NCBI GenBank assembly: GCA_963774195.1
Contig: CAVZDY010000004.1
Coordinates: forward strand, 365,878-429,877
Source: an uncultured Alphaproteobacteria bacterium
GTDB taxonomy: Bacteria > Pseudomonadota > Alphaproteobacteria > Rhizobiales > Beijerinckiaceae
DNA: 64,000 bases
Direction of reading: 5' to 3'
Shown here: piece by piece, positions 1 through 16,622 of the stretch
How the letters are laid out: every line of letters begins with the position of its first letter
Numbering within the stretch: position 1 is the first letter of the stretch
The notes under the pieces: model-generated
The model's database searches: none
Told to the model about the DNA's origin: nothing
The model's input: only the letters and a program-made list of their open reading frames with translations
Position numbers and translations under genes: made by a program

Positions 1-675
1 GATCGCTTCCGCGCCAGCGCGACCCGCATCATTTGCAACGTCGGCACGCTGACGGTCGGAATTGACCTCGACGTGCGTTGCCTGATCGACGCCCGGCCGA
101 CGAAAAGCGAGATGCGCTTCGTCCAAACGATCGGGCGCGGCCTGCGCACGGCGCGCGGCAAGGACCGGCTGATCATCCTTGACCATGCGGGGAATCATCT
201 TCGGCTCGGCCTGGTCACGGATATTCATCACGATAGCCTTGACGACGGATCGCCTCGTCGCGGCGGCCAAGACCGCGTCGAGCGTGCCAAGCCGTTGCCG
301 CGGCTGTGCGAGGAGTGCAAGGCGGTCTTGCCGCGTAGGCTCACCGTCTGCCCGTCTTGCGGCGCTTTCCGTGAGGCCAAGTCTGAGGTGATCCACACCG
401 ACGGCGAACTTGTTTCGCTCGGCTCGCGCGCCCCTGCGAGCGCCGGGCCGACCATCGCGGAAATGGCGGCCTTCTACGCCGAGTTGAGCGGATATGCCCG
501 CCAGCGCGGCTATGCCGTTGGCTGGGCGTCTCATAAGTTCCGCGAGAAGTTCGGCGTTTGGCCGAACGATCCGCGCATCAAGTACGCGGCGCCGACCTTG
601 CCGTCTCTGAAGGTCAAGCAGTGGATCCGATCAAGGCAGATCGCTTTCGCGAAAGTGCGCGCCGCCTATGGCTAA
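1..675 (+). CDS. Superfamily II (DEAD/DEAH-like) phage helicase, C-terminal part; 5' end outside window
   Basis: Open frame from base 1. Motif V-like NVGTLTVGID, motif VI QTIGRGLR, C-terminal CxxC...CxxC zinc finger (CEEC/CPSC). Confidence 0.85.
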   Translation, partial: DRFRASATRIICNVGTLTVGIDLDVRCLIDARPTKSEMRFVQTIGRGLRTARGKDRLIILDHAGNHLRLGLVTDIHHDSLDDGSPRRGGQDRVERAKPLPRLCEECKAVLPRRLTVCPSCGAFREAKSEVIHTDGELVSLGSRAPASAGPTIAEMAAFYAELSGYARQRGYAVGWASHKFREKFGVWPNDPRIKYAAPTLPSLKVKQWIRSRQIAFAKVRAAYG

Positions 676-1141
676 GACGCCTCGCCGCAATCGGATCGCG
701 GGGCAGTTTGCCGCTCGCCCTATCGAGATGATGGAGTCGCCCGCTTATCGAGCGCTCAGTCTGTCGGCGCATCGCGTGCTGTCTCGTCTCGAAATCGAGT
801 TGGCGCATCACGGCGGCGCCGACAACGGCAAGCTGCCAGTTATCTACGATCACTTCGCCGAGTATGGGCTCGACCGCCACGCCATCGCGCCGGCCATTCG
901 CGAGCTCGTCGCGCTGGGCTTCGTCGAGATCACACGCCGCGGCTGCGCGATCAATGGCGACATGCGGCAATCGGCGCTGTACCGGATCACCTACCGTCAT
1001 GTGCGAGGCGTCGACGGCGACGGCACTCACGAATGGCGGCAGATCAAGAGCGACGAGGAGGCCAAGGCCATCGCGAAAGAGGCGCGCCAAGACGCCGACC
1101 CGCGCGCTCGCCAACTCGCCTTGGCCCGCTCCAAAAAATAA
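668..1141 (+). CDS. Phage-type helix-turn-helix protein, possible replication initiator
   Basis: Overlaps helicase stop, wHTH-like segment (IAPAIRELVALGFVEITRRG), directly followed by iteron-like repeats. Confidence 0.55.
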   Translation: MAKTPRRNRIAGQFAARPIEMMESPAYRALSLSAHRVLSRLEIELAHHGGADNGKLPVIYDHFAEYGLDRHAIAPAIRELVALGFVEITRRGCAINGDMRQSALYRITYRHVRGVDGDGTHEWRQIKSDEEAKAIAKEARQDADPRARQLALARSKK

Positions 1142-1144
1142 AAG

Positions 1145-1253
1145 ACCAGTGGGGGTTTTTCCCGTCTACCAGTGGGGGGTTTCCCCACTGAAAGCCTGAT
1201 TTACCAGTGGGGGTTTCCCACACTACCGTCCCAGTGGGGGTTTCCCACACTAC
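1145..1253 (+). repeat. Four direct repeats CCAGTGGGGG(G)TTT(TT)CCC, iteron-like
   Basis: Copies begin at ~1146, 1169, 1204 and 1231; the last two extend to ...TTTCCCACACTACC. Confidence 0.85.
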
Positions 1254-1682
1254 CTCTATATCTCGGGGGGATTACCAACCCGATCACAGCGCGACCGGCC
1301 TGTGCCGCGATGGGCGATGATGGCAGCAACGGCCCGATAAACGGAAGCTCTACCTCGTGCATTTTTTCGGTGAGTGCGCCGCCCCTGCCCGCCCGCCGCC
1401 GCTGCCCGCGTCACACCCGCGTCGTCATGCACAGGCACGCCAGGCCGCCAGCCGGCGCGCGCCCAGCCAGGCGCGGCGAGGATGAACGCGCGCGAGCGTC
1501 GGCTTGATCTCCGGCCTCTGTGCGTCGCTCCGGCGACCGACACCTGATACACAATCAGATGCTCTTGCTCTCGCAAATGTCGCAAAATGTCTTGTTTTGT
1601 CGATCTTGCAGAGAATAGCATATCGCGCGCATACTGACGGGGTAACGTTCGGGTATCAGGCCGCGCCATTTCAGAGATCAGA

Positions 1683-2129
1683 ATGCTCGAAAGCCAACCC
1701 CTCGCGAAGCCTTTGTCGCCCGTTCGCAGCGGGCGCGCGACGCGTCCGGCGACGATCTGCAACAAGTCGACGAATGACCCCCGCTTCGTTCATGGGGCTG
1801 ACGGGCGTTCCAGGCTGATGCGCCGCCGCCGCGACCTGATCGCAATCTTCGTGGCGGACCTGGGTGGCGACGCCGCAGTGACGCCCTCCCTCATGGTGAG
1901 CGTGACACGTGCAGCGGACGCCGTCGCCATCGCTGAGAGCCATCGTTCCCGCGCACTGCGCGGCGAGGCGATCAACCTCGACGACTTGGTTCGAGTTGAG
2001 AACATCGCGTCTCGTGCCGTGAAGGCGCTTGGGATCAAGCCGGGCGCGGGTGGTGCGAAGCCTCCGTCTCTCAGCGACTACCTCGCGTCCCGCAAGCCTT
2101 CCCCTCCCGCTGAGGAGGCCGCGGAGTGA
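1683..2129 (+). CDS. Putative terminase small subunit-like protein
   Basis: DGRS..RRRRDLI..F..DLGG pattern; ends overlapping the terminase large subunit start. Confidence 0.5.
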   Translation: MLESQPLAKPLSPVRSGRATRPATICNKSTNDPRFVHGADGRSRLMRRRRDLIAIFVADLGGDAAVTPSLMVSVTRAADAVAIAESHRSRALRGEAINLDDLVRVENIASRAVKALGIKPGAGGAKPPSLSDYLASRKPSPPAEEAAE

Positions 2130-3640
2130 TCAACATCGTCGAAGCGATCGACGACCCCTCGCTGTTCGGCCCGTGGTTCCAAGGGCCGTCTTGGGCGACC
2201 TGGCGGGCGATCCTGAAGGCCGCCTTCGCCCTTCCCATGTCGAAGCGCGAGCGCGAGCTATTCCGCCGCGTCGCCGATCGTGAACCGCCTCGCAAGCGTG
2301 TCCGTGAGTTGTGGATCATCGCCGGCCGCCGCGCTGGGAAGGACAGCGTCGCGAGCGCCATTGCCGCATGGTTCGGCGCAATCCCAGACTATTCGGGCCT
2401 TCTTCGTCCGGGCGAAGCCGCGAGCGTCATGTGTCTCGCGGTCGATCGCCAGCAAGCCAAGATCGTCTTGAGATACACCAAGGCGTTCTTCGAGCGCATC
2501 GAGTTGCTGCACGGTCTCGTCACCCGCGAGCATGCCGAGGGCCTCGATCTCAGCACCGGCGCCGAGCTTTCCGTCTTGGCCAGCAACTATCGATCGGTTC
2601 GCGGGCGTTCCGTCGCGTGCGCTGTCCTCGACGAGTGCGCGTTTTGGCGATCCGACGAAAGCGTGTCCCCCGATACCGAGACATACGCCGCCCTCGTTCC
2701 TGGCCTCGCGACGCTGCCCGGTTCGATGATTGTCGGCATATCGTCGCCCCATCGTCGCGGCGGCCTTCTCTATGAGAAGTATCGAGCGCACTACGGCAAG
2801 CCCGACGACGACGTCCTCGTGATCCGCGCCCCGTCGCGGGTGCTCAATCCGACGCTCGACCAGAAGATCATAGACGACGCAATGGCGCGTGATCCGGACG
2901 TGGCTCGAGCTGAATGGCTTGCGGAGTGGCGCGACGACATCGCGACGTTCCTCTCTCGCGACCTAATCGAGAATGCCGTCGACACTGGCGTCCCGGTCCG
3001 TCCGCCGCGTCCCGATGTTCGATATGTCGGCTATGTCGACGCAGCTTCCGGCGTCGGAAAGGACTCTTTCGCCTGCGCAATTGCTCACGCCGAAGGCGAA
3101 GAGATCATCGTCGACTTGGTGCATGAAATCCGCCCCGGGTTTAACCCGACTTCGGCGACGGCTGAGGTTTGCGCGCTGCTCAAAACCTACAGAATCAGTA
3201 CAGTCCGCGGGGACAAGTATGCTGCCGGCTTCGTAATCGAAGCGCATGCGAAGTTCGGGATCAATTACCTGTACTGCGACAACGACACGTCGACGAACTA
3301 TCTCGGCGCGCTTCCGTTGTTCACCAGCGGACGCGTCAGACTTGTCGATAACGAACGCTTGGTCGCCCAGTTCGCAGGCCTTGAACGTCGGACGTCGCCG
3401 GGAGGGCGCGACCGGGTCGATCACGGCGTCGGTGATCGGCACGACGACGCGGCTGCGGCTGTGGCGGGCGCCTTGGTCCTTGCGACGCAACACGAGCCCG
3501 AAATCCCGGTCATTGCGCCGGTCCTGATCGGCAGGCCCGCGCCGCGGTACTTCCCCGAAAGCAGCATCTACACGGCGGGCGGCCTTGAAGGCGCGATCGC
3601 CGACACCCGCAAATCCGGATTTTCAAGGAGACTCGCATGA
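2126..3640 (+). CDS. Terminase large subunit-like protein
   Basis: Walker A-like AGRRAGKD, Walker B AVLDE, coupling motif ISSP, RNase H-like acidic residues (YVDAASG...DS; DH..GDRHDDAA). Confidence 0.8.
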   Translation: MINIVEAIDDPSLFGPWFQGPSWATWRAILKAAFALPMSKRERELFRRVADREPPRKRVRELWIIAGRRAGKDSVASAIAAWFGAIPDYSGLLRPGEAASVMCLAVDRQQAKIVLRYTKAFFERIELLHGLVTREHAEGLDLSTGAELSVLASNYRSVRGRSVACAVLDECAFWRSDESVSPDTETYAALVPGLATLPGSMIVGISSPHRRGGLLYEKYRAHYGKPDDDVLVIRAPSRVLNPTLDQKIIDDAMARDPDVARAEWLAEWRDDIATFLSRDLIENAVDTGVPVRPPRPDVRYVGYVDAASGVGKDSFACAIAHAEGEEIIVDLVHEIRPGFNPTSATAEVCALLKTYRISTVRGDKYAAGFVIEAHAKFGINYLYCDNDTSTNYLGALPLFTSGRVRLVDNERLVAQFAGLERRTSPGGRDRVDHGVGDRHDDAAAAVAGALVLATQHEPEIPVIAPVLIGRPAPRYFPESSIYTAGGLEGAIADTRKSGFSRRLA

Positions 3641-4236
3641 GCACCAGCGAAGCCCAGGCCACCCTCGAGGCCTTGCGGGCCAAGCTTGCCGAGGCATCGT
3701 CCCGCGAGATCGCGCTCTCCGTCGAGCGTCGGCGTCTCAGCTTTGATGCGAACACGGGCGACGCGGCCGCCGCCAAAGCCCTCGACGAAGCGAACAAGGC
3801 GACGGCGACGCTCGGCCTTGAAACCGAAAACCTTGTCTCCGCGATCGACGAGGCGAAGCGCCGGCTTGCGGCGGCCGAGCGCGTCGAAGAGATGGTGGCG
3901 ATGCGCGACAGGGCGACCGAGGCGCAAGTGCTCGGCGAAATGCTGATCGAGCGTGCCCGCAAGATCGACGCGGCGCTGGAGATCGTGGCGGCCGAGTTGC
4001 TGGGCTTCGTGGCCGACATCACGGCTTTGAACCGGTTGGGCGCTTCGAACCCGCGGGCCGAGCAATTCACGGCGCTGGGCGAGCGCGCTCTCGCTACGGC
4101 TCTCATGCCGACGCCGCTGAAGGTTCGCCACCTCGGCCACGGTGAAAAGCGGACCTTTTCCGAGTTGGCCAAGGGCTGGCGCGACAGCGTCGAGCGCTGG
4201 GCGTCGGCGTTCGTTGGCAACGCGGAGGCCGCATAG
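3637..4236 (+). CDS. Hypothetical coiled-coil protein
   Basis: 199 aa, A/E/R/L-rich helical composition, coupled to neighbouring genes. Confidence 0.65.
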   Translation: MSTSEAQATLEALRAKLAEASSREIALSVERRRLSFDANTGDAAAAKALDEANKATATLGLETENLVSAIDEAKRRLAAAERVEEMVAMRDRATEAQVLGEMLIERARKIDAALEIVAAELLGFVADITALNRLGASNPRAEQFTALGERALATALMPTPLKVRHLGHGEKRTFSELAKGWRDSVERWASAFVGNAEAA

Positions 4237-4499
4237 TGGCGAACGCGCTCGGAACTGCCGCGCACGCGCTCGACGGAGACGTCGCTCAACTGCAAACCGA
4301 CCTTGCGACGTACCTCGCCGCGGGCGGCTCGCCCCGCGATTTCTATTGGTGGCTGCTTCAAAAGCTCACCCAGACAAGCGGCCACACGAACACGATGACG
4401 AACATCATCAGGAAGGGCGCCAGCAAGGGCACGCGCCCGTCTCCGGCAATGCTCAACACGACGCTCTCGGCGCTCACGCCTGGTGCGACCTATCCCTGA
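4236..4499 (+). CDS. Hypothetical protein
   Basis: 87 aa ORF whose GTG start overlaps the upstream stop. Confidence 0.55.
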   Translation: MANALGTAAHALDGDVAQLQTDLATYLAAGGSPRDFYWWLLQKLTQTSGHTNTMTNIIRKGASKGTRPSPAMLNTTLSALTPGATYP

Positions 4500-4518
4500 A
4501 CAGAGAGAGGAAACCAAC

Positions 4519-4887
4519 ATGTCGAACGTCAACATCGGCGGCCTCGCGCAAATCGTCCTGGAAGGCAAAGCCGCCGAGTATCGCAAGGCGCACCCGGAAC
4601 TGACCGAGGAGCAGGCCTTCGCGAAGGTCTATAGCGATCCCGCCAACCGGGAGGCGGCGGCCGCGGAGCGGCTCGCGAACCGCAGCGCCACGGCGGAGCC
4701 GATGGCGATCTCGACGGCGCTAGCCAAGCGCGAGAGCGCGATGGATGCGCTCACGGCCAAGGCGGAAGAATTGCGGGCATCCCACCCCGAGCTATCCGAG
4801 GCCCAGGCTTTCGCCAAAACCTACAAGGCGAACCGCGGGCTCGCAGTGGCGGAACGCGGCGCGGCGCGGGCGGCGATCGGCGCATGA
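4519..4887 (+). CDS. Hypothetical protein with internally duplicated motif
   Basis: RBS GAGAGG. Motif KA.E.R..HPEL(T/S)E.QAFAK.Y occurs twice. Confidence 0.7.
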   Translation: MSNVNIGGLAQIVLEGKAAEYRKAHPELTEEQAFAKVYSDPANREAAAAERLANRSATAEPMAISTALAKRESAMDALTAKAEELRASHPELSEAQAFAKTYKANRGLAVAERGAARAAIGA

Positions 4888-6206
4888 GTTTGGCGCTCAC
4901 AGTGCAGGAGCGTCAGAGGCGCAGCGGACGGTCGCCTAAAACATCCGCCGCGGAGGTCGTGCTCTTCGCTGGGGCAGCGGCCTCCGCATTTCAATCGAAA
5001 GGGAAGCTGATGGGTGAAGCGATCTCGTTAAAAGGCCTCCGCCGCACGCTCGCGGCCGCGACGCTTCTCGCCGCCTCGATCGGCCTTGCGCAAGCGCAGG
5101 GCGTCAGAATCGACGATCTCGGGAGCATCCCGTCGATCGACGGCTCGGAGAGCATGTTTTGCAGCCAGGACGGGACGCCGTATCGCTGCGCACCCGCGCA
5201 GATCGCGACCTATCTTCAAGGCATCATAGGGGGATGGCCGCTCACTTGGACGGCGCGCGCCACTTTTGCCGTAGCGCCAGTTTACACCGCGACGACCGGC
5301 TTTGGGAACTCGGTCGTCAATCCAGGAACCGGCTATCTCGAAAGCGTTCTCCCGGTCCAAACCATCACGGGCGCGTCTTACTCCTTCTCGACAACGGACC
5401 TATTTAAGAAGACGCGCCGCTCCAATGCGGGCGCGGCGATGGCAGACACGTTTCCTGCGGCGACGACGCTGGGAATTGTCAACGGCGCGCGCATCATTGT
5501 CTCGAATACGGACGCAACAGCCTCGATCACGATCACGGCGGGCGCCGGCACGTCGATGCCTTCCGGGTCGACCGACGTCATCGGCCCCGGCCGCGACGTC
5601 GCCTATGAATACGACGCGGCCTCGGCGACCTGGCGCGGAGCGTTCAACACGCGCACCGCGCTCCTGTCGGGCGGCGACGTCGCGATCGGCGCGAACGGCG
5701 CGACGCAAGTCAACAAGATCCAGGGGACGGCTGTCTCGACGCCGACCGGCTCCGGCGCCGTGGTGCTCGCGCAGAGTCCCGCGCTAACCGGAACGCCGAC
5801 AGCGCCTACCCAAACGACCGGCGACAATACGACGAAGATCGCGACGGATCAGTTCGTCTCGTCGGCGGTAGCGAACGCTGCAGCGGGCGCGATCCCTGCG
5901 CCGCAAGGACGCCTGACGCTGACGAACGGCTCACCGGTTATGACCTCGAATGTCTCGGCGGCAGGGACGGTCTTTTACGCGCCCTATGCCGGATCGAGCA
6001 TTCCGCTCTGGAACGGAACGGCGTTCGTCCCGAACTCGGTTCGCGCAACTCAGCAATGTCCTCGCCAACTCGTCGACCGGCAACGCCGGGCCGGCGGCTG
6101 CTGTCGCGTCAGCTCTCTATGATTTCTTCGTCTGGAACAACGGAGGCGCGCTTACCCTCACTCGCGGTCCTGCCTGGACAAGCGCGAACGCGCGCTCGCT
6201 GTCGAT

Positions 6207-7261
6207 TAGAGCGGTTCCCGTTCAGGTTGGTTCATAGCCGGCGGCCTCGAAATAGTTTGCGCATTCGCGCGGCGTGACAAGCGGAATGCATTCGGCGATT
6301 GCGCGCCACAGACCTTCGACGGTGCGTTCGGCGGCTCTGCGCAGCAGCGCCTTGAGCTTGGAGAACATCTTCTCGATCGGGTTGAAGTCGGGGCTGTAGG
6401 GCGGCAAGTAGAGCAAGGTCGCGCCGGCGGCTTCGATCATTTGGCTGATCCTCGGTCCTTTGTGGCTGGACAAATTGTCCATGACGACGATGTCGCCAGG
6501 CGACAGCGTCGGGACCAGGAATTGCTCGACATAGGCTTCGAAGACCTGGGCGTTGATCGGTCCGTCAAAGACCAGCGGCGCGACAACCCCCGCCAGCCTC
6601 AGTCCGGCCACGAAGGTCGTGGTTTTCCAATGGCCGTGGGGGACGGCGGCGCGCAGGCGTTCGCCTCGCGGAGCGCGACCGTATCTTCGCGCCATGTTCG
6701 TGGAGGCCCAGGTTTCGTCGATGAAAACCAGCTTCGCCGGATCAAGATCGAGCTGAGACGCGAACCATTGCCGACGGCGCTTCAGGATATCGGGGCGATC
6801 TTGCTCGGCCGCGTGCGCGGACTTTTTTTGAGCGTGATCCTCCTTCGGGCGAAGAAGCGCGAGAGCGCGGAGATGCTGAAGGAATGGCCCTTGGCTGCGA
6901 GGGCGGCGCGCATTTCGGCCAAGGTGGCGTCGCTGCCGGGGCCGAGCAGGGACAGGATGAAATCAGCCTGCGCCTCGATCGCCGCTGATCGACGATCGCC
7001 GCCCTGCCGCTTGGGCGCAAGGTCGCCCGTCGCCAGCGCCTGCGCAACCCAGCGGATCGCGCTCGATACCCCGACCTTGAAATGCGCCGCCGCCTGACGG
7101 CGCGACATTCCCCCATTCACCGCGTCAACCACGCGCTCGCGAAGATCCGTCGAAAGAGGTTCCCCCATGTCGGCCGGCCTCCTTCGCCAGCCAACACGGT
7201 GAATCAGAAACACGTCGATTCGGGAATCCCAAGCGATTCTAATCGGTCGAGAACCGCTCTA
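6207..7261 (-). mobile_element. IS630-family insertion sequence (1055 bp including both TA)
   Basis: Terminal inverted repeats TAGAGCGGTTC at 6207 and GAACCGCTCTA at 7251-7261, TA target duplication, two-ORF transposase. Confidence 0.95.
6222..7168 (-). CDS. IS630 transposase (ORF A 7168-6782 plus ORF B, -1 frameshift at A7G, 6823-6829)
   Basis: HTH N-terminus (DLRERVVDAV), DDE motifs FIDET, DNLSSHK, YSPDFNPIE. Confidence 0.93.
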
Positions 7262-7880
7262 GTCGCGTCAATGGCGTTCTCACCAATGCCTCTGCAATCA
7301 CCAACGGCCCAACAGCCGGGTATGGAACTTACGTCGGCACAGGCGCGACCGACGCCTCCGGCGGCACGATCACCTGGAACATGGGTAGCTCGGCCTCAGG
7401 GGGCGGTGCGGCGTATCTCGACCTTTGGAATCAGTACAACCGCGTCAACGTCGTAGCGAATGTCGTGGACTCGGGCGCGACCTATACCTACGCGACGGCT
7501 TCTTGGCGCGAAGTGCGCGGCGGCGCCACGGATCAAATTAACTTCGTGATGGGGCTTGCTGAAGACCAAGTTCTCTCCAGCTACGGCACGACCGCGACAA
7601 CGAGCGGCACTGTCGGATCGACGAATATTTTCTCGGTTGGGTTCAATTCGACAACCGCGCCTCTTTCGCCGCAGTTCACCCTTGTGGCCCAAGTGGCGAG
7701 TTCGACGTTAGGCCTTAGCGGTTCCACTTCGTATTCCGTGTGGCCGTTGCCAGGCTGGAATTATCTTGCCGCGTGCGAGTTCGGCGAAAGTCCTTCGAAC
7801 ACTCTCAATCCCAACGAAAACAGCACGCTACTCGCAGAGCTGCGCATGTAGGCTTCGCGCCCTAATCAAGAGGAAGACTG

Positions 7881-8117
7881 ATGGGTGAAGTCATCGCGTT
7901 CCCAGACATCCGCCGCGCGCAGCCCGTGCCATCGGCGCCCGTCCATATGTGGGCGGTCATCGCCTCGATGGCCAAGCCACCTCCGGGCGTCTCGGAAGCG
8001 ATGGCGGCGATGGACGCCATCAGCGACGTCGGCCGGCGGCTTTGGGAGGTCCCGACGCTTCCCGGCGAGGCACGGTTTCTCAAGCAACTGAAGGAAATCA
8101 CGCAATGGATGGGTTGA
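7881..8117 (+). CDS. Hypothetical protein
   Basis: 78 aa ORF with upstream GAGGA RBS. Confidence 0.5.
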   Translation: MGEVIAFPDIRRAQPVPSAPVHMWAVIASMAKPPPGVSEAMAAMDAISDVGRRLWEVPTLPGEARFLKQLKEITQWMG

Positions 8118-8525
8118 AAGTGGAAGTTCAAGGCGACGCCGCGCCTTTCGCGGCGGCGGTCGAAGAGAAGAAAACGGAGCGCACGGCGAACCCGGTGACG
8201 GTGATCGATGATCGCACGGCGAAGGTGGTCGAACTCGGCCGGGCGGCTTCTCGAGGTCAGGCGGCTTTCCGCGCTCGACCGCATGCGGCTCCTCAAAGTC
8301 GCCGGAGCGAAGGATTCCGAAAACGCGCAGTGGATGAGCTACGCGACGCTGGCGGCCAGCGTGCAGAAGATCGACGGCAATCCGATCGGAATGATCACGT
8401 CGCAAGTCAAGCTCGAAGGCGTGGTCCAGCAGCTCGACGAGCACGGCCTCAAGGCGGTAGTCAGCGCCCTTCTTGCGCTCATGCCGCCGGAAGAGGAGGT
8501 GGCCGACGCCGCCCGAAATTTGTAG
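8105..8525 (+). CDS. Tail assembly chaperone (G-like); apparent frameshift near 8235
   Basis: MDGLKVEVQ... continues after a shift as AGRLLEVRRLSALDRMRLLKV...ARNL*. Lies upstream of the tape measure-like gene. Confidence 0.6.
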
Positions 8526-8695
8526 AGCGCACCCCGCTTCGCTCCATCGCGTGGCTGGTCAAAAACGGCCTGTCGCTCGAGCAAGTCGACCGAATGGACG
8601 AAGCGGAAATGCTGGCGTGGCACATCGCGTTCGGTGAGATCGAAGGCGGCGAATGGGATTGGGACAGGATGCGCTGGGAGAAGCCTGAAACCTAG
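8516..8695 (+). CDS. GT-like -1 frameshift extension of the tail chaperone
   Basis: Heptamer A AAT TTG (8516-8522) just before TAG. The -1 frame gives FVERTPLRSIAWLVKNG...GEWDWDRMRWEKPET with no start of its own. Confidence 0.65.
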   Translation, partial: KFVERTPLRSIAWLVKNGLSLEQVDRMDEAEMLAWHIAFGEIEGGEWDWDRMRWEKPET

Positions 8696-8919
8696 CGAAG
8701 CAAGGGGGCGATCTTGGTCTCGACGACAGCGGACAGCACGCACCACACGACGAACAACAGCGCGGCGGTCGCAAGCCCGCGGAAGACGACACGGGGGAAC
8801 CACTCCATCGCGCGCAGCCATGCTGGCGCGCTGGGGTCGTTGAAGTCGCGCGGGGTGACGATGATGCCCGTGTGGATCGGGCCGATCCGTGGGCCAGAAA
8901 TCCAGAAGCGAAGGCGCAT
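8692..8919 (-). CDS. Small membrane protein, antisense to the tail module
   Basis: 75 aa MRLRFWISGPRIG... with a C-terminal hydrophobic helix (GLATAALLFVVWCVLSAVV). Confidence 0.55.
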   Translation of the reverse strand: MRLRFWISGPRIGPIHTGIIVTPRDFNDPSAPAWLRAMEWFPRVVFRGLATAALLFVVWCVLSAVVETKIAPLLR

Positions 8920-8952
8920 GCCCCAACATACGCCCGGTAAGGGAATCCAGCA

Positions 8953-11556
8953 ATGATCGAGGCCGGCACAGTTGGTGCAATTTTCCAAATTCAGGACGAA
9001 GCCTCCGCCACCCTTCGCAGGCTTGCCGGCGAGTTCGAACGGCTCGACGGGCTGATCAGCAGCACGAAAAAGGAGCTGTCGTCACTCTCCGCGACGCAGT
9101 TCTCCGGCATGATCAAACGGCTTTCGGGCGTCGGCCAGGAACTGACCGGGATCGGGGAAAAGTCGGCGGCCGCATCGAAGGCGATCGGCGAGAATTTTGA
9201 CGGCGCCGGCCTCGCAATCTACAAAGCGATCGAGACAGCAACGTCGAGCGTCTCGGCGAGCTTCGGCAAGATCGACACTGTGGCCGACACGTCGATCGCG
9301 GCGATCGGCAAGTTGAAGGCTGAATTGGCCAGTCTCGGCGCCGCAGCGAAGATCGAGACGCCGGCCATTGCTGCAGCTCAGCATATGCAGAGCTTTACGT
9401 ACAAAGGCCTTGGCGTAGGAGCCGGGCCCGACGGCAGCGTTGGCCGGCATGGCGAGCGCGGCAGCCACGGCCACATCACGCCCCATGGTCAAAGCGTCGG
9501 CCCTTATCACTTCGGCGGCGACGGCTTCATGGCGGCCGCCGGCGGGATCTTCGCCATCGAGGAGGAATTGAAGCATTCCTTCGATATGGCCCACTGGGTC
9601 GCGCAGATGCGCGCGGCAGGCGCCGATGCCAAGACGATCGCGGACGCTACCGGTGCGGCCTGGCAGAATGCCAGCCTGAACTGGAACACCACAGCCGCTG
9701 AGGGCGTCAAAAACATCATCGAGGCCAAGAAGGCCACGGGGGATTGGGGCGAGGCTATCAGGCTATTGCCCGCCCTCTCGACGGCGTCCTTCGCGCTTCA
9801 TTCGGTCACTGCGGCGGGGATGAAGGAAGGCTTTAACTCAGACGCGCAAATCCTGAACTTCGGCCGCACGCTCGACGAACTCGGCATCACCCAAAAAGGA
9901 GCGACCCCAGAGGCGCGCGAAGCGATCATCCGCGATTACTCCGCTGAGATGATCCGGACGATGATCGGCACGCGCGGCCTTGTCGACGCGAACCAGTTTT
10001 ACGCCATGGCCAACAATTCCGGCGGCACGGCGATGAACTGGGACGAGCGCTTCGCGACCGTCGTCGCCCCCATCATCGGGTCGATTATGAAAGCCGGGAA
10101 GCTTGGCAACAGCGACTATATGGCGTTGCGCAGCTACCAACAGGGCGTGATTCCGTCGAAGACGGTCGATCAAATGCTCGACCTGCAACTCCCCGGCGCC
10201 GATGGCAAGATGCGACCGATCAAGCTGCTTTCCGATGCCGATTGGTATCAGGACAAGGCGGGCGTGCACCTCCATCCGAACAACCCGTTCTCGGAAGGGC
10301 TCCAAACCAACCCCTGGGAATGGAGCGCGAAGATCCTGAAGTCGCTCAAGGCGCAAGGCGTCGACATCAGCAACCAGGACACGATGAACAAACTCGTCAA
10401 CGTGATCGCGCCGAACAAGTCGACCGGGCTGTTCATGCGCGAGCTGTTCGAACCGCTGGCGCGCGCGCTCATCCAAAAGGACATCGATTCGCGCGACGCC
10501 GTGCCGAAGGACGCCGCCGGCATTCTCCAGCGCGACGATCCGCTGCTCAAGATGGACGCCCTGTCCAAGAAGTGGCAGGACCTCATGACCGCGCTCGGCG
10601 GCCCAGTCACCGATCCGGCGATCGCCGCCTTGGTCAACTTGACCAAAGGCCTGAATGATATCTCGCAGTTTTTGACGAAGTACCCTGCTGCGTCGAACAT
10701 CTCCTCTTATGCCTTGACGGCCGCGGCGAGCATCGCGGTCCTTGCAGGCGCGATCAAGCTGCTCGGTCTCGCCGGCCCGCTGGCCTGGCTGTTCAAAGGC
10801 CCTGGTGGCGGCGCTCCTACGGCTCCGGCAGCGCCGGTTGCGCGCGACATGCTCGGCGACATCACCAAGACGGTTGAAGGCGCAGTCGACGGGGCCGTGA
10901 AAGGCGGCGCAGTCGAAGGCATGCTGAGCAAGACGCTGCGCGGCGGCGTGGTTGGCGGCCTCGTCTACGCTCTTGGCGATTGGGCGATCAACACGTTGGT
11001 CCCACTGACCCCGGAGCAGCAGAAGAACCTCGAGGATCATTCGGTGGCAGGATGGCTGCGCTACCTCGCCGAACAGGCGGCGCCGCTCATGTCAGCCGTC
11101 GGCGGCACTGTCCCAAACGCCTCGACTACGCCGATAACGCATCAGGAGCGGGCGACCCTTCCATATCTCAACAACCAAGACCTGCAAGGTATTGGCGCTG
11201 AGCCGGTCGTCTACCCCGGCCTTCCTGGCAGCAGAGAGGCTCAGCGCGCACGCGACGCGCTTTACAATGCCGGCTACTCAAGCGCCGCGCTCTCGGCCGA
11301 AATGGCCCGAGAGTCCGCTCGTGGGCGCGTCATGTCCTCGCCCGAATTCCGCGCCGCCAACCCGCCGAAAGTCGACGTCACCTTGAACAACCAAATCGAC
11401 AACAAGCTGACGATCTATATCGACGGCCAGCAGATCGTCGGCCGCGTCGTCGCCGAGGTCCAGTCGAAAATCATGCAAGGCGCCGAGTTCCGCAAGACGC
11501 CGGCGACCTTCGACACCCACGCCTCATTCGCCGATTCCGGCGCGGAGTTCGGCTGA
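8953..11556 (+). CDS. Tape measure-like protein
   Basis: 867 aa, Ala/Gly-rich helical composition, directly after the G/GT chaperone pair. Confidence 0.7.
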   Translation: MIEAGTVGAIFQIQDEASATLRRLAGEFERLDGLISSTKKELSSLSATQFSGMIKRLSGVGQELTGIGEKSAAASKAIGENFDGAGLAIYKAIETATSSVSASFGKIDTVADTSIAAIGKLKAELASLGAAAKIETPAIAAAQHMQSFTYKGLGVGAGPDGSVGRHGERGSHGHITPHGQSVGPYHFGGDGFMAAAGGIFAIEEELKHSFDMAHWVAQMRAAGADAKTIADATGAAWQNASLNWNTTAAEGVKNIIEAKKATGDWGEAIRLLPALSTASFALHSVTAAGMKEGFNSDAQILNFGRTLDELGITQKGATPEAREAIIRDYSAEMIRTMIGTRGLVDANQFYAMANNSGGTAMNWDERFATVVAPIIGSIMKAGKLGNSDYMALRSYQQGVIPSKTVDQMLDLQLPGADGKMRPIKLLSDADWYQDKAGVHLHPNNPFSEGLQTNPWEWSAKILKSLKAQGVDISNQDTMNKLVNVIAPNKSTGLFMRELFEPLARALIQKDIDSRDAVPKDAAGILQRDDPLLKMDALSKKWQDLMTALGGPVTDPAIAALVNLTKGLNDISQFLTKYPAASNISSYALTAAASIAVLAGAIKLLGLAGPLAWLFKGPGGGAPTAPAAPVARDMLGDITKTVEGAVDGAVKGGAVEGMLSKTLRGGVVGGLVYALGDWAINTLVPLTPEQQKNLEDHSVAGWLRYLAEQAAPLMSAVGGTVPNASTTPITHQERATLPYLNNQDLQGIGAEPVVYPGLPGSREAQRARDALYNAGYSSAALSAEMARESARGRVMSSPEFRAANPPKVDVTLNNQIDNKLTIYIDGQQIVGRVVAEVQSKIMQGAEFRKTPATFDTHASFADSGAEFG

Positions 11557-11834
11557 TGGCGGAATTAGACCGATCGCTTCTGCTGCCGAATAGCCCCGAA
11601 TTGGAGGCGGCTATCGAGTATCTTTTTGGGGAAGGGAAATGTAGCCGCGATAGCGAAAGCGAGGCTCTCCAGGAGGAGCATCGGGCAGCTCTTCGAGAAG
11701 CGATTTGTCAAGCGGAACGCGAACGGGCTGAGCGAGAGGGCGTCCCGTATGATCCTCAGACACAATCGCGAACGGCTGACCGTTCTCAAAGACAATATTG
11801 CATACTGACCGTCGGCCCACCGCTTCAAAGTTGA
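11556..11834 (+). CDS. Hypothetical protein
   Basis: 92 aa ORF whose start overlaps the tape measure stop. Confidence 0.45.
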   Translation: MAELDRSLLLPNSPELEAAIEYLFGEGKCSRDSESEALQEEHRAALREAICQAERERAEREGVPYDPQTQSRTADRSQRQYCILTVGPPLQS

Positions 11835-11983
11835 GCGCAATGTCGTCCGCCACGGCCTCGTCTCTCCCTTTTTCGGCATCCAAGCACCGGACGGGGAGCG
11901 AGTTCGAATCTGGGCGCCGCCACCTCGACAAAGGCCAGCGGGCCATGGTCGCGGCCAAGCCGCACGGGAGAGGTCAAGACGAA

Positions 11984-12472
11984 ATGCCGACGCCGCTTGA
12001 AAAGATGCCCTCATGGCAACGCACGATCGTCGAAGCCAGGCGCGCCGCGATGGACGGCCTGGCGCTCGAAGAGCAGGAAGCGGCCAAGCTGGCGCAGAAA
12101 GCGGCGCGGGAACGTGCGGCCGCGCGCCGTGAGGCATCCAAGCGGCTCGCCCAGAAGATCTACGCGATGTATTTCGACGGCGCCCACATCGGCGAGATCG
12201 CCCATGCCGTCGGCCGCAGCATCAGCAGCGTGCGCCAAGTTGCGGCCCGCTGGGGCTTCCCGATCTCGGTCAGCACGCAAATCCGAATGATCCCGGTTGC
12301 AGTGGCCGACGCCCGCGCTGCTGCGCTCGATCGGGCTTCGGCCGACTACGGCACGACGCGGGCACAGACGCTTGAGGACGCGATGACGTTCCTGCTCGAT
12401 GAGGACGCGCTCGCGCTGCGTCGGCTGCTGCATATCCGGCGGCGCGAAGCCGGCGCGGCTCTCACCGGGTAA
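11984..12472 (+). CDS. Putative HTH DNA-binding protein
   Basis: HTH-like GAHIGEIAHAVGRSISSVRQVAARWG; ATG at 11984 after GGAGAGG. Confidence 0.5.
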   Translation: MPTPLEKMPSWQRTIVEARRAAMDGLALEEQEAAKLAQKAARERAAARREASKRLAQKIYAMYFDGAHIGEIAHAVGRSISSVRQVAARWGFPISVSTQIRMIPVAVADARAAALDRASADYGTTRAQTLEDAMTFLLDEDALALRRLLHIRRREAGAALTG

Positions 12473-12612
12473 GCCATTGATTTTAATCGCCTCAAAATTG
12501 AGGTGCCGCTAAGTCCTTGATTTCAATCGGTCCAAATTTGGACCATCGCTAAGCCGTTGACTTTGAACGACGCAAAATTGCGCCATTGGGTTTCATCCCG
12601 CCCAATTTGGTC
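12470..12612. repeat. 40-bp-period array: IHF-like box plus variable-arm palindrome, three units and a partial fourth
   Basis: Units start at 12470, 12510 and 12550. Bottom strand reads AATCAATGGCTTA, AATCAAGGACTTA, AGTCAACGGCTTA. Palindromes are CCTCAAAATTGAGG, GGTCCAAATTTGGACC, CGCAAAATTGCG. Confidence 0.8.
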
Positions 12613-12640
12613 AGAAAGCGCCGCTTTCAGCTTCGCGACG

Positions 12641-12880
12641 TCACCAAGGAAGCGCCCCATCGGGCCAACAATCGAGCGTCGCTCGCGCGCCGATCTCCGT
12701 CATCTCCACCAGTTGCGCAGGCATACCTTGTGGCCCGAGCAACGTAAGGCTGTGCCCTGGCCCGAATCGGAACGAAATTCCGGTCTGTTGATGCTGAATT
12801 TGACGGGTGTCCGGAAGAACAGAGTAATCGATATATCGAAATCCTGGAGGAAGAGCTTCGTTTGCCATTGACACCACCAC
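12641..12880 (-). CDS. Small hypothetical protein
   Basis: 79 aa ORF converging on the repeat array. Confidence 0.4.
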   Translation of the reverse strand: MVVSMANEALPPGFRYIDYSVLPDTRQIQHQQTGISFRFGPGHSLTLLGPQGMPAQLVEMTEIGARATLDCWPDGALPW

Positions 12881-13018
12881 ACACGCGGGCGCTCAAAGCC
12901 TCGAGGCGACGCTATACCCTAGCTGAAGGTGGTAAAAGAGACGGGGTTCTTCAAGAGGGCTCGCTAATGGTGCGCCGCGAGATTTCCACGGCGGTTGCCG
13001 CATCGAATCCCGTACCAA

Positions 13019-13265
13019 TCATCTTGCCTTCCTCAGCCTCACGCCCGGCCCCTCGCCGTTCTCCTCGACGAAGATGACGCCAGCAGAATTCGAGGGCGCG
13101 CTGAATTGCCGCCAGATTCGGACTCGTCATACTGCCGACGCCATCCACAAGCTCAGCGCGACGTATGGTCGCGACCCCGACGCCAGAAGCGTTGGCCAGG
13201 TCCTCAGCTCGCCACCGGATCAGGGATCGCGCGGCCCGTATTTGAGCGCCGGTGATATCTGACAT
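13019..13265 (-). CDS. XRE-family HTH transcriptional regulator (apparent 1-nt frameshift near 13088)
   Basis: ITGAQIRAARSLIRWRAEDLANASGVGVATIRRAE; the shifted frame supplies the expected tail SAGVIFVEENGEGPGVRLRKAR*. Confidence 0.8.
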
Positions 13266-13371
13266 ATCGTTTGATCTCTCGTTTGACAATTGGCCATCGT
13301 GTGATATTCAGTATATCACGCGATGTATCGACGATCAAACGATCATTGCTGGACGCATCAAGGAGCAACCC

Positions 13372-14053
13372 ATGTCGAAACGCACCGTTTCGGCCGCCGG
13401 CGGAGCTATGCCCGCCCAAGGCCAGCCATCGAACCATCTGGACGCCGCGCTCTTCGCCCTCGCCGAGGAATGCATCGCGGCTGGTCGCGAGCGTGACAAA
13501 GCGCTCGACCGGCTGAAGGCCGCCGAAAAGCGCTATCGCCCGGTTCCGCCGCCGGCTGCCGTCCTTAAAACGGAGAAAGACGCGAGGCTTGGGCTCTACG
13601 TCGGCCCCGGTGCTGACGAGCCTTACGACCGCGAAGAAATCGCGGCGATCCGCGTCTTCTGCCGCGCCGAGGGCGCCAAGCCATGCGGCTCGTCAGTCAA
13701 AACCGCCGCCTATTTTCGCGGACTCGAAATCCTCGACGCCTGGGCAGACTGGCAAGAGAAGGTCGTCCGCGAGGAAGAGCGGTCCGGCTTGGCCGCGGCG
13801 ACGCGAGCCGACATCGAGACCGCAGGCAAGTTTGACGCGATCGCGGGGAAACTCGCAACGACGCCGGCCAGCACTGTCGAGGGCGTCCTAGCGAAGACCC
13901 GGGCGAACTCTTAGCGTCTTCGTCGGCGACGATGCGATCGCGAAGAGCATTCGGGAGGGATTGCGCCATTACGGGCCAAACGACGACGTCGTTTCGGAGA
14001 GCCTCGCGCGCGATCTTATTCGTTTGGTCAAGAGCGAAGGGGTTGCGAAATGA
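13372..14053 (+). CDS. Prophage hypothetical protein (apparent frameshift near 13905)
   Basis: ATG after AAGGAG, divergent from the XRE gene. The alternate frame gives a plausible C-terminus ending at 14053. Confidence 0.5.
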
Positions 14054-14161
14054 AAACCGCCCCGAACCGCGGCGCCGCGCTTGGCGTTCTCGCGTCCGCC
14101 AACAACGTGGCACAGAGCGTCCTTCGCGACTGGGCGCGCCTTTCACGGAGCGAGGCCGCCA

Positions 14162-14530
14162 ATGCCTAAGCGAGGGGATCAAGACGCCGAGCCCAGCCGA
14201 GCCGAGGAACGAGCGCGGCTCGAGCGGGTGGCCGTAGCGGACGAGTTCGAGCGCCTCTATTCGAAGTGGCTCAGGGCGCGTGCGGCGCTCGACGATCCGG
14301 ACTCTGACGAGGATGGCGCGTTGAGAGACGATCGATGCGACGCCGCGGCGCGGGCGCTGCTCATGGTGCCCGCGGTCATGCCCTGGATGATCTGGCAGAA
14401 ATGGCAGGTCCTCGACGAGTGGATGTCCGGCGAGAACGGGTTGCCTGACTGGGCCGACAACCGCATCACCATGGCGCTCGGCGTCATCAAAGCGGACATC
14501 ATGAGCGTGGGCTTGCAGGAGCCGGGCTGA
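14162..14530 (+). CDS. Prophage hypothetical protein
   Basis: Helical ORF (LYSKWLRARAALDD...IWQKWQVLDEW) with coding-like composition. Confidence 0.55.
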   Translation: MPKRGDQDAEPSRAEERARLERVAVADEFERLYSKWLRARAALDDPDSDEDGALRDDRCDAAARALLMVPAVMPWMIWQKWQVLDEWMSGENGLPDWADNRITMALGVIKADIMSVGLQEPG

Positions 14531-14902
14531 GCCGGGGTGCAGCCCGCACCATGGTTGGCCGCCCGAGTTGTTCGAGGCGAAGCGGCGGCCGTTGGCCGCC
14601 CTTTTCATTTTGGACTTAGAGGTAGAGGTGTCTGTACGCCAAAAGATCGCAGACCGACCACCGCTGGCCGTCGACCTCGATCTCGGCAGGCGACGCGGGA
14701 GTTCTATTGAACACGCAGGCGAGGCCAGACGCGAACTTCATGGCGCCGATCCTGGACGGAAAATTGTAGCCGCCGGACGCGCCGGGCAGGCGAACCTGAT
14801 GCTTTGCCATAGAGCCCCTCCGGGCTGTTACCCCTCCCGTCACCCCAGCGAAAATTGCAGGTGGGAGCGGTTTCAAAAAAACAGCTAAGTCATTGAAATA
14901 AA

Positions 14903-14948
14903 TGGCGCGCCCGAAGAGATTCGAACTCCTGACCCCCAGATTCGTAGT
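14903..14948 (-). repeat. att site: 46-bp duplication of the tRNA-Arg 3' half
   Basis: TGGCGCGCCCGAAGAGATTCGAACTCCTGACCCCCAGATTCGTAGT matches 25309-25355 apart from one extra T in the tRNA copy. Confidence 0.95.
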
Positions 14949-15106
14949 TTGACGGTCTAGCATTTTTTGACGTTTCTCGGGGTTTCCGCCTGCTACCAAT
15001 GCCCTGTTTTGCTTAATGTTTCTCATTTCGGCTTGTCGCCGAACGGTTCGCGAGGTAGCCTGTAACTGCTTACCGGCTGCTTACCGGAACGACGCGGAGA
15101 CTCGCA

Positions 15107-16384
15107 ATGCCACAGGGTCGGATTTCCAAAAAGACCGTAGACGCCCTCGCCTGCCCCTCTGACAAGGACCGTGAAATTTTGTGGGACAGTGCGCTGGCGG
15201 GCTTCGGCGTTGCGGCCTTTCCCACAGGACGCAAGGTGTACGTGGCGCAATACCGCCAACACGGGCGCTCGCGCCGCGTCGCCATCGGCGAGCATGGCCG
15301 GCTCACCCCGGACGAAGCGCGCTCGGCGGCCAAAACGATCCTTGGACAGGTCGAGCAAGGAGCCGACCCAATTGACGAGCGGCGCAAGGCGCGAGCCGTC
15401 CGCACGTTCCAGGAGGTCGCCGACGACTTCATGAAGCTGCATGTCGCCGCCAAGCGGAAGGGGCGCACCAGCGAGGAATACGGGCGGCTCCTCCGCCTTC
15501 ACGTGCTTCCGGCGATTGGAGCGCGGCGCGTCTTGGACCTTCGGCGCACGGACCTTGGCCGCCTTCACGGGGAGATGTCTGAGACGCCCCGCACCGCAAA
15601 TCACGCGCTCGCGCTCGTTTCCGCAATCTGGAATTGGGCCGCGCGTCGCGACGAAGTGTCAGCAAGCGACAATCCGGCCAAAGGGATCGAACGCTACGCC
15701 GAAAATGGGCGCGAGCGGTTCTTGACGACCGAAGAGCTTGCTCGCCTCGGAGCCGCGCTGGCGGATGGCGAGTTGGTCGGATTGCCCTACGAAGTGGATG
15801 AGACGAAGCCCGGGGCGAAGCACGCTCCGAAGGCCGAAAAGCGCCGCGTCCGGCTCGACCCATTCGCCGCGGCAGCAATCCGCCTCTTGATCTTAACCGG
15901 GGCGCGCCTTCGCGAGATTTTGGACGCCAAATGGTCAGAGGTCGATTTGGAGCGCGGCGTGATCTTCCTCGCCGACAGCAAGACGGGCAAGAAGCCGATC
16001 TATTTGAGTGCGGCGGCGCAAGAGGTGTTGGCGGGCCTTCCGCGTGTCCAAGGGAATCCGCACGTCATCGCCGGAGCAAGGGAAGCCGCGCCCCGCGCCG
16101 ACCTCAAGAAGCCTTGGGCGGCAGTTACGCGCGCCGCTGGCCTTGAACGCTTACGACTGCACGATTTGCGCCATTCGTTTGCGAGCTTTGGTGCGGGCGC
16201 TTCGCTTGGACTCCCAATCATCGGGAAGTTGCTCGGCCACGCCCAGGCGGCGACGACGCAAAGATACGCTCACCTTGACGCCGACCCTATGCGCCGAGCG
16301 GTTGAAACAATTAGCTCTACGATTGGAGCCGCCCTAAACGGCGGCACAACACGCAATGTCATCGCCCTTGCCAAGCGCAAATGA
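15107..16384 (+). CDS. int: Tyrosine recombinase/integrase with N-terminal arm-binding domain
   Basis: Catalytic R (LTGARLREI), HxxR (LHDLRH), H (LLGH), Y (TQRYAH); about 160 bp from att. Confidence 0.95.
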   Translation: MPQGRISKKTVDALACPSDKDREILWDSALAGFGVAAFPTGRKVYVAQYRQHGRSRRVAIGEHGRLTPDEARSAAKTILGQVEQGADPIDERRKARAVRTFQEVADDFMKLHVAAKRKGRTSEEYGRLLRLHVLPAIGARRVLDLRRTDLGRLHGEMSETPRTANHALALVSAIWNWAARRDEVSASDNPAKGIERYAENGRERFLTTEELARLGAALADGELVGLPYEVDETKPGAKHAPKAEKRRVRLDPFAAAAIRLLILTGARLREILDAKWSEVDLERGVIFLADSKTGKKPIYLSAAAQEVLAGLPRVQGNPHVIAGAREAAPRADLKKPWAAVTRAAGLERLRLHDLRHSFASFGAGASLGLPIIGKLLGHAQAATTQRYAHLDADPMRRAVETISSTIGAALNGGTTRNVIALAKRK

Positions 16385-16622
16385 GCGACGCAAGTTACGC
16401 CGTCAGATTACGTTATGTATTGCCTCACTCCATCCCTGTCATATACGCTATCTTGATCCTGCATTACGGTATTATTTCTTTGGCTTGCCTTACGTTTACG
16501 TGTAATAATTCGCGAAAAACGTGGAAAAACCCACCTAGACGTCGAAAAATATACTTGACGCCCAATATGATGCTTGGTACCCCCCATAGCTTCTTGCTGA
16601 ATAGCGGTGACTATGGAGGGTT

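Follow-up and report, generated by a model that had tools for sequence, protein, structure and literature searches.

A putative phage satellite encoding a terminase and some tail parts in an alphaproteobacterial genome

Layout of the locus

The stretch analysed here (the window) spans 64,000 nucleotides of contig CAVZDY010000004.1, positions 365,878 to 429,877 of the forward strand, from the assembly GCA_963774195.1 of an uncultured Beijerinckiaceae bacterium. Its first 14.9 kb or so are phage-like and probably represent part of an integrated satellite with its own large terminase (TerL) and several tail-assembly genes (Table 1). According to the open reading frame (ORF) list and a codon-usage gene caller, the phage-like genes between 1 and 14,900 are co-oriented on the + strand and coupled; besides the ORFs of Table 1, the run includes those at 4884-6122, 8208-8525 and 11556-11834. 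Adjacent genes share 1-17 nt where they meet at 675/668, 2129/2126, 3640/3637, 4236/4236, 4499/4483, 4887/4884 and 11556/11556, seven junctions in all. The GC content is 0.62-0.66 over the first 16 kb, comparable to that of the chromosome on the right.

A sequence-only reading of this DNA had listed a helicase, a helix-turn-helix (HTH) protein with iterons, terS-like and terL-like genes, three small ORFs, a fibre gene, a G/GT chaperone and a tape measure protein (TMP), without portal, protease, capsid, tube or baseplate genes. Its list and its gene order hold for every item. Our Pfam and PHROG scans of all ORFs in 1-14,900 also agree with the absences, with no match to portal, protease, capsid, tube or baseplate families, and none to head-tail adaptor or connector genes. 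The gap between TerL and the fibre gene is 1.25-1.4 kb and contains small ORFs only. Downstream of the TMP, no distal tail, hub or lysis genes were found, only small ORFs and a regulator, followed by the attachment (att) site; a baseplate hub (BhuB) is missing from the whole window. The retained coupling that the sequence-only reading emphasized is borne out by the seven overlapping junctions, but does not extend to every gene, because the fibre gene is disrupted in this copy.

Table 1. Features of the phage-like region at the left end of the window
Feature	Position	Strand	Basis
SF2 helicase, C-terminal 224 aa	1-675	+	phrog_16, 1.5e-20; replication module
157-aa protein, putative iteron-binding replication initiator	668-1141	+	position; homologues with iterons
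Four iterons CCAGTGGGGGTTTCCC, putative replication origin	1146-1254		repeat count against chance
148-aa helical protein in TerS position	1683-2129	+	4-nt overlap with terL start; position and weak fold resemblance
TerL, 504 aa, ATPase and RNase H-like nuclease domains	2126-3640	+	phrog_2, 8e-29; fold
199-aa Ala/Glu/Arg-rich protein	3637-4236	+	no family or PDB match
87-aa ORF	4236-4499	+	no family matches
122-134-aa protein with duplicated 'HPELxEEQAFAK' motif	4483-4887	+	no PDB match
Tail fibre/spike gene, 5' (N-terminal) part	5010-6208	+	tail-fibre PHROGs, 1.5e-6
IS630-family insertion sequence	6209-7259	-	DDE_3, 1.5e-31; HTH_28/HTH_Tnp_IS630
Fibre/spike gene, 3' (C-terminal) part	7262-7851	+	alignment of the repaired protein
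78-aa ORF	7881-8117	+	start region duplicates that of the fibre gene
Tail assembly chaperone G/GT	8208-8695	+	phrog_20383, 4.7e-17
Divergent TMP, 867 aa	8953-11556	+	remote homologues
Two small ORFs after TMP, 92 aa and 175-224 aa	11556-12472	+	weak phrog_323 match
XRE-like regulator, candidate repressor	12951-13289	-	phrog_5823, 0.0035
Two accessory ORFs, 168-220 aa and 122-149 aa	13252-14530	+	no family matches
Right boundary att repeat	14875-14959		direct repeat of 25281-25366 (85 nt)

The terminase pair

To judge from its profile match, its predicted fold and its catalytic residues, TerL is a real and complete large terminase. The protein is weak in Pfam and strong in PHROGs, and a PDB sequence search with its profile returned no match. 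Its AlphaFold model (pLDDT 83), however, matches full-length large terminases of HK97 (8e-18), Sf6, T4 and D6E in Foldseek, with E-values of 1e-18 to 1e-10, as well as the isolated nuclease domain of G20c (TM 0.79) and the ATPase domain of P74-26 (TM 0.62). By predicted fold it is of the HK97 type. Among 24 homologues, residues G67, G71, K72, D73, E170, D305, D363, D440 and D441 are invariant and D169 nearly so; the Walker A, Walker B and acidic nuclease residues are thus invariant or nearly so. The terL-like label of the sequence-only reading is therefore confirmed by both the phrog_2 match and the full-length fold matches. No close relative was found among 50,697 phage genomes, in which the best TerL was 22-29% identical.

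The 148-aa protein encoded directly upstream is likely TerS-like, a name that we give because of its position and its weak fold resemblance. Of 80 loci (see below), 58 have a TerS-like gene no more than 700 nt upstream of TerL. The model of the window protein has a three-helix core (pLDDT 76), and its best fold matches are small terminases, but these stay below significance (BFVD, E 0.09; HK97 TerS, TM 0.61, E about 4). The TerS-like group matches no Pfam family and has no PDB sequence match. The corresponding claim of the sequence-only reading is therefore upheld by position and by the kind of fold matched, not by the significance of those matches.

The gene preceding the TerS-like gene was also recurrent. 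A family of about 190-230 aa often occupies this place (e.g. L020, L027, L028, L031 and L038; L numbers denote the loci compared here), and it matches the Pfam Resolvase gene of the soil contig L086, which is 58% identical to the L031 copy.

Related islands

More than 1,400 TerL homologues were found. A genome scan yielded 79 loci with TerL relatives, which were analysed by gene calling and clustering, with counts made over 60-80 loci. Most of the 79 loci are from metagenome-assembled genomes of Alphaproteobacteria, and cultured carriers belong to Bradyrhizobium, Rhizobium, Mesorhizobium, Shinella, Methylocystis, Acidiphilium, Aureimonas, Sphingomonas and Phenylobacterium. Cultured strains with such a locus are Acidiphilium iwatense KCTC 23505 (L067, which has chaperone, neck and TMP genes), Aureimonas leprariae YIM 132180 (L068, which has a TMP), Bradyrhizobium sp. 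SZCCT0180 (L024), Mesorhizobium ventifaucium STM4922 (L053) and Wenzhouxiangella sp. EGI_FJ10409 (L077, the minimal member of 9.2 kb). The typical order is integrase, replication genes, TerS-like gene, TerL and a variable region. An integrase lies upstream of TerL in 47 of 66 loci and replication genes in 40 of 66; a portal-sized ORF (at least 330 aa) directly follows TerL in only one of 60.

In many of the loci, a tRNA gene follows within a few kb on the other strand, and the integrases of the relatives are tyrosine integrases at tRNA genes. Twenty islands, 9,229-18,290 bp long, are bounded by att repeats, the 3' end of the tRNA being duplicated just upstream of the integrase; the repeats measure 25-59 nt in 18 of them. 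The space after TerL in these bounded islands is 1.9-9.5 kb. It is only 1.9-2.5 kb in L077 (9.2 kb) and L051 (9.5 kb), where the integrase, the replication genes and the terminase make up nearly the whole island.

The sequence-only reading had left room for a one-off deletion, with homologous terL genes sitting in complete prophages. Instead of complete prophages, we found small islands, 20 of them with tRNA att boundaries. Because the layout recurs in islands, and because the phage genomes searched contain no close TerL, the capsid-less order is not a one-off deletion. These islands appear to form a widespread and, apparently, undescribed family of 9-18 kb elements at the 3' ends of tRNA genes, mainly in soil Alphaproteobacteria.

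A related TerL was also present in a GenBank entry from a methane-oxidising enrichment, the 16.7-kb 'Virus Rctr16k' (KX853514.1, our L084), which is 28% identical to that of the window. Its layout runs from an integrase through replication genes and terminase to small ORFs and a tail protein. Rctr16k may, by its gene content, be a satellite of the same kind as the TerL islands rather than a virus. A literature search for 'Rctr16k' returned nothing.

The variable region behind TerL was surveyed in two stages: 100 proteins of the bounded islands were scanned together, the best 25 families being listed, and targeted scans followed. No capsid family was among these 25 or in the targeted scans. TMPs are encoded in L002, L008, L009, L052, L054, L067 and L068, and L070 is linked to them by a local hidden Markov model only, having no PHROG match; in L002, L052, L054 and L067 the TMP starts 2-3.6 kb after TerL. 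Tail-completion/Neck1 genes occur in L054, L067, L070 and L088, baseplate-hub-like genes (phrog_196) in L050, L059, L060, L078 and L081, and tail fibres in L048, L011 and L031. Portals were found only in L030 and L088, and protease-like proteins in a few relatives. Defence-like and insertion sequence (IS) genes are also part of the variable region. Judged by this distribution, the tail genes are variable cargo in a subset of the members and do not define the family.

The defence-like cargo raises the question whether the terminase-like pair might serve the host or the island against phages, for example by interfering with helper DNA through cleavage or mis-packaging, with the island using another route to move. 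Defence genes are common in the cargo regions of satellites, KAP NTPase, AAA_16, Fic and ART-PolyVal proteins are encoded after TerL in relatives, and this TerL is far from any known phage TerL. Yet a TerL complete with ATPase and nuclease, a conserved small partner, and adjacent chaperone, TMP, neck or portal genes have the look of packaging and virion assembly. Furthermore, interference and self-packaging are not exclusive in known satellites. We therefore consider a pure interference device unlikely.

Chaperone and tape measure

The chaperone G is encoded at 8208-8525, with a possible start at 8105, and would be extended to GT by a -1 frameshift, ending at 8695. The heptamer A_AAT_TTG (8516-8522) lies 9 nt before the stop of G, and the -1 frame is open for 59 codons. 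This arrangement is that of tailed phages. In L067 and L054, A_AAA_AAC is likewise found 9 nt before the stop, followed by a homologous 59-aa extension, so that the position of the heptamer and the extension are kept in all three. The intact slippery site reported by the sequence-only reading is thus corroborated. The T part also matches L070, L088 and L089, and the chaperone had no match in phage genomes.

The 867-aa protein is a divergent TMP, as suggested by its remote homologues. Direct searches found no Pfam or PHROG family, tblastn against phages gave nothing, and a word-based homologue search retrieved only a 98% twin. An exhaustive search, in turn, returned 406 distant homologues; of the 52 that were sampled, 33 match the TMP family phrog_28 (best 1e-21), which settles the identification made in the sequence-only reading. 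Local links connect the protein to the TMPs of L002, L054, L067 and L070. At about 1.5 Å per TMP residue, the basis of such estimates, the predicted tail length is about 130 nm.

Two further loci show the surroundings of the TMP. On L086 (1-15072, a Logan soil contig), a TerL of the Terminase_6N/6C type is followed by two small ORFs and then by a TMP that is 45% identical to that of the window. This contig also carries the helicase, primase and resolvase modules common to TerL islands. By gene content, the architecture persists in L086 despite a swapped terminase. L088 (3-6315) encodes the C-terminal part of a portal, proteins of 138 aa and 77 aa, a G/T chaperone, Neck1, a 950-aa TMP and two small ORFs, before chromosomal fimbrial genes begin; no capsid or tube gene lies between its portal, neck and TMP.

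The right arm of the element has counterparts as well. The second ORF after the TMP (175-224 aa) resembles the ORF after the TMP in L086. In L090, the post-TMP genes mirror the right arm of the window, and they include an HTH_3 gene which resembles the XRE-like gene and is likewise in opposite orientation. The XRE-like protein itself had no PDB sequence match.

A disrupted fibre gene

The fibre ORF opens at 4884, with a likely ATG start at 5010, and is split by an IS630-family element. The terminal inverted repeats of the latter (GAGCGGTTC...GAACCGCTC) lie at 6209 and 7259, and are flanked by TA duplications at 6207-6208 and 7260-7261. In addition, there is a 1-nt frameshift between about 6024 and 6036. 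Excising the IS630 and one TA restores the frame, and removing one further base at 6024-6036 gives a protein of 595 aa. This repaired protein aligns across the IS site with the tail spike of Pseudanabaena phage Pam5 (33% identity, residues 300-576, E 3e-22) and also aligns to Agrobacterium phage Rivra; a PDB sequence search with the fibre gave no match. The identification as a fibre in the sequence-only reading is in line with both the tail-fibre PHROG matches (1.5e-6) and the Pam5 alignment. The IS630 splitting the fibre gene and the frameshift, as well as the displaced tRNA-Arg right end and the tandem island described below, had all escaped it.

The frameshift may be an assembly error, since independent assemblies differ by indels elsewhere, in the TMP: in L087, assembled independently from the same soil sample, the TMP is split into 810 + 74 aa versus one 867-aa ORF in the window. 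Because of the IS630 insertion, and possibly also the frameshift, the fibre function is currently lost in the window copy.

The fibre gene and the 78-aa ORF share a 57-nt direct repeat (4993-5049 and 7864-7920, 75% identical), which in each case spans the ribosome-binding region and the start codon. From this repeat, it looks as if the fibre gene had been inserted as a cassette between the 134-aa and 78-aa ORFs.

A broken fibre gene could also be expected in a decayed prophage, a siphovirus from which the portal-to-tube block and the tail-tip genes have been deleted, and the remainder of which is drifting. The IS630 and the frameshift, the incomplete set of tail genes, and the IS elements in the corresponding region of many relatives are compatible with such decay. 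It is difficult, however, to reconcile with a capsid-less, TerL-centred layout that recurs across many genera, including 20 att-bounded islands of 9-18 kb, with TerL catalytic residues that are invariant or nearly so, or with the conserved chaperone frameshift and the gene coupling. Moreover, none of the TerL relatives sat in a complete prophage, and no close one was found in phage genomes. We regard decay from a prophage as quite unlikely.

Replication module

The helicase at the left edge of the window is truncated there. With the N-terminus supplied by an overlapping soil contig (L085), the full protein has 464 aa with ResIII and Helicase_C domains, which together with the phrog_16 match (1.5e-20) verifies the helicase of the sequence-only reading. 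Homologues are encoded upstream of TerL in L039, L077, L078 and L081. A leftward extension, attempted through a search with the 157-aa protein, gained only 755 extra bases.

The repeat CCAGTGGGGGTTTCCC occurs four times, at 1146, 1169, 1204 and 1231, directly after the gene of the 157-aa protein, where 0.01 would be expected by chance. In L039, L024 and L063, iterons likewise come after the homologue of this gene; they are similarly spaced but differ in sequence from locus to locus. As the homologues thus precede iterons of their own in three loci, the 157-aa protein and the iterons fit a putative pair of initiator and origin. The sequence-only reading had called the protein an HTH protein with iterons: the four iterons stand out against the 0.01 expected, but the HTH label is unconfirmed, as the protein matched nothing in Pfam, PHROG or PDB sequence searches.

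Small open reading frames behind TerL

The three ORFs at 3637-4887 are probably neither capsid nor portal genes, as their products show no such similarity (Pfam and PHROG, and PDB for the 199-aa and 134-aa proteins), and because all three, of 199, 87 and 134 aa, are also too short. The sequence-only reading is sustained here too. A homologue of the 199-aa protein is the first gene after TerL also in L007, L066 and L010, and in L007 and L066 a homologue of the 134-aa protein comes next; the 87-aa ORF has no homologue among the fetched loci. A scaffold-like role for the 199-aa protein would be a guess only.

The number of such proteins might suggest an autonomous miniature temperate virus, with a capsid and portal too divergent to be recognised. 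The unannotated ORFs encode 199, 87, 134, 92, 224, 220 and 149 aa, and the 16.7-kb 'Virus Rctr16k' in GenBank has a comparable layout and a TerL related to that of the window. None of the unannotated ORFs is long, though, the largest having 224 aa, and the members of 9.2-9.5 kb leave at most 2.5 kb beyond integrase, replication genes and terminase. Tube and tail-tip genes are absent as well. Altogether, a complete virus of this size is highly improbable.

Boundary and neighbouring island

We place the end of the element at about 14.9 kb because the 85-nt direct repeat there carries the 3' 57 nt of a tRNA-Arg. The repeat consists of this displaced tRNA-Arg end (14903-14959) and 28 nt of flank, and the tRNA-Arg itself lies at 25309-25386 on the - strand. 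Between the two, at 14960-25308, a second island is inserted in tandem, flanked by the 85-nt repeats and with a GC content of 0.54-0.59. It encodes an integrase (15107-16384) and a 735-aa primase-like protein (17405-19612), both homologous to those of the TerL islands, and is without a TerL. That both islands are one composite element is ruled out by the tRNA fragment between them.

At the place of a TerS-like gene, the second island has a 168-aa ORF (19794-20300). It also contains a 42-nt direct repeat near the tRNA (22976-23017 and 25019-25060, 98% identical). The rest of the window, 25.5-64 kb, is ordinary chromosome, with genes for an amidohydrolase, PlsY, DprA, GatB, RuvX, ABC transporters, OprB porins and GGDEF/EAL proteins. 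Also within 25400-64000 are a tRNA-Ser (40919-41012) and the gene of another DDE_3 (IS630-type) transposase, which is not identical to the first.

A helper-dependent satellite

Taken together, positions 1 to about 14,900 are probably the right-hand and larger portion of an integrated satellite which depends on a helper phage but supplies a terminase and some of the tail parts itself, a reading to which we assign a probability of about 0.65. With a terminase of their own and no capsid, the islands most likely owe their spread to a helper phage, from which they would take the head and the greater part of the tail. The chaperone/TMP module recurs after TerL in relatives with its frameshift site conserved, even beside a different TerL family. 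A satellite that brings packaging and tail parts and uses a helper capsid, as proposed by the sequence-only reading, is thus supported by the capsid-less islands and the conserved module, and from gene content and precedent we infer helper-dependent packaging with chimeric tails.

The life cycle of such an element could proceed as follows. A helper phage would derepress the island, possibly via the XRE-like regulator, and the island would excise with the help of an integrase encoded left of the window. Replication would start from the iterons, driven by the 157-aa initiator and the helicase. The TerS-like protein and TerL would then recognise and cut island concatemers and pump the DNA into procapsids built by the helper. 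By analogy to the Vibrio phage-inducible chromosomal island (PICI)-like elements (PLEs), for which this mechanism has been shown, the island chaperone and TMP might replace those of the helper and yield a chimeric tail of about 130 nm, while the fibre would retarget adsorption.

Looking across the family, the islands might use the variable cassette to replace those virion parts that are 'axial' and of low copy number (portal, neck, chaperone, TMP, hub and fibre), an idea for which we see even odds. With such a replacement, which is equally balanced in our judgement, the particles would be helper-built shells and tubes around satellite-encoded parts for DNA conduit and host range. If true, axial replacement would add a third strategy to the two in which satellites remodel the capsid (PICI, P4) or form one themselves (capsid-forming PICIs, cf-PICIs).

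Several observations weigh against a helper-dependent satellite. TerL is very distant from known phage TerLs, its fit to a helper portal is assumed, and the TerS assignment is weak. Beyond the best 25 PHROG and Pfam families listed, a weak capsid match is possible in some relatives. The window copy may be decaying and partly disabled, and its left end, with the expected integrase and left att, lies outside the window. No helper phage was identified, and there is no helper prophage in the 64 kb. There was also no sign of excision, replication, encapsidation or transfer, the sole run being a thin soil metagenome: read mapping for excision or an IS-free variant covered only fragments in this one low-coverage run.

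Two other candidates were considered. Hijacking of gene transfer agents was rejected on general knowledge of their properties only; their heads have room for about 4-14 kb, and the host DNA that they take up is packaged at random. A tailocin was ruled out, as there are no tube or sheath genes.

Comparison with known satellites

To judge from gene content, the element belongs neither to the cf-PICIs or the classical PICIs, nor is it a complete prophage. Among satellites, TerL is reported only from cf-PICIs (PMC10085698, PMC12822802); in the SatelliteFinder survey it is a component specific to them, found together with TerS (PMC10085698). Both subunits are present here, TerL firmly and TerS likely. 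Further points in common with cf-PICIs are the small size of an integrated satellite, the integrase (in relatives) and the replication module. However, the genes that define cf-PICIs are those for the capsid, the portal, the protease and the head-tail adaptors and connectors (PMC10085698), and only tails are stolen by them. None of these genes was found in the window, which has tail-assembly genes instead. A complete temperate siphovirus would differ by a run of portal, protease/scaffold, capsid, connector and tube genes after TerL, which is missing from the window.

The resemblance to classical PICIs lies in the order of integrase, regulator, replication genes with iterons, packaging gene and accessory genes, in fixed sites, in a size of about 10-15 kb, and in a satellite terminase subunit that redirects packaging. 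Like them, the window element has its own replication module with an iteron origin, an arrangement shared by its relatives. As for the flanks, the right att is at 14875-14959, and an integrase and both att repeats are present in 20 relatives. In contrast, classical PICIs are without TerL or tail genes, and here a full TerL is accompanied by chaperone, TMP and fibre genes. Of the P4-like satellite genes, Psu, Delta, Sid and alpha primase were not found in the Pfam and PHROG scans of the window ORFs.

Other small elements share single traits. The EPIPs of Mycolicibacterium are small satellites with a TMP, which are reported to alter tail length (PMC12822802, preprint Dec 2025). They differ in having TerS only, with no TerL reported, a serine integrase, and adaptor, stopper and scaffold genes, and in belonging to Actinobacteria (PMC12822802). 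VEIMEs and PICMIs are small integrative elements, many of them in Alphaproteobacteria, most without capsid genes and some with a small terminase (10.1101/2022.07.26.501625). By their description only, they have small terminase subunits or motor-like ATPases, and no TerL and TMP module.

These comparisons bear on the question of how satellites exploit phages. TMPs in satellites were first reported in 2025 (PLEs, EPIPs), and our literature search found no description of TerL-encoding capsid-less satellites. A full terminase of its own plus partial tail assembly without a capsid would widen the known ways in which satellites exploit phages, and would raise the question of how a satellite TerL docks on a foreign portal. 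The islands would also open up for satellite biology those Alphaproteobacteria that live in soil or in association with plants (such as Bradyrhizobium, Rhizobium, Mesorhizobium, Methylocystis and Acidiphilium), in which we found no characterised satellite. The islands, which also carry defence-like cargo, would escape current satellite finders.

The best functional precedent for the genes at 8208-11556 are the PLEs. Their own chaperone, TMP and baseplate hub are incorporated into chimeric tails and needed for efficient transduction, and according to the authors no other satellite with a TMP had been reported (10.1101/2025.01.29.635557). The window shares with them the tail assembly chaperone (8208-8695) and the TMP (8953-11556), and five relatives the hub; in PLEs, these parts replace those of the helper, from which the capsid and the bulk of the tail are stolen. 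On the other hand, PLEs are described as dependent on the ICP1 packaging motor, with no PLE TerL mentioned, and the window element is likened to them by gene content alone. PLEs also have a large serine recombinase, a lytic myovirus as host phage, and Vibrio as their bacterium, in contrast to the tyrosine integrases at tRNA genes of the relatives described here. From its genes, the element is most like a PICI-type satellite with a complete terminase, combined, in the window copy, with a PLE-like partial tail set.

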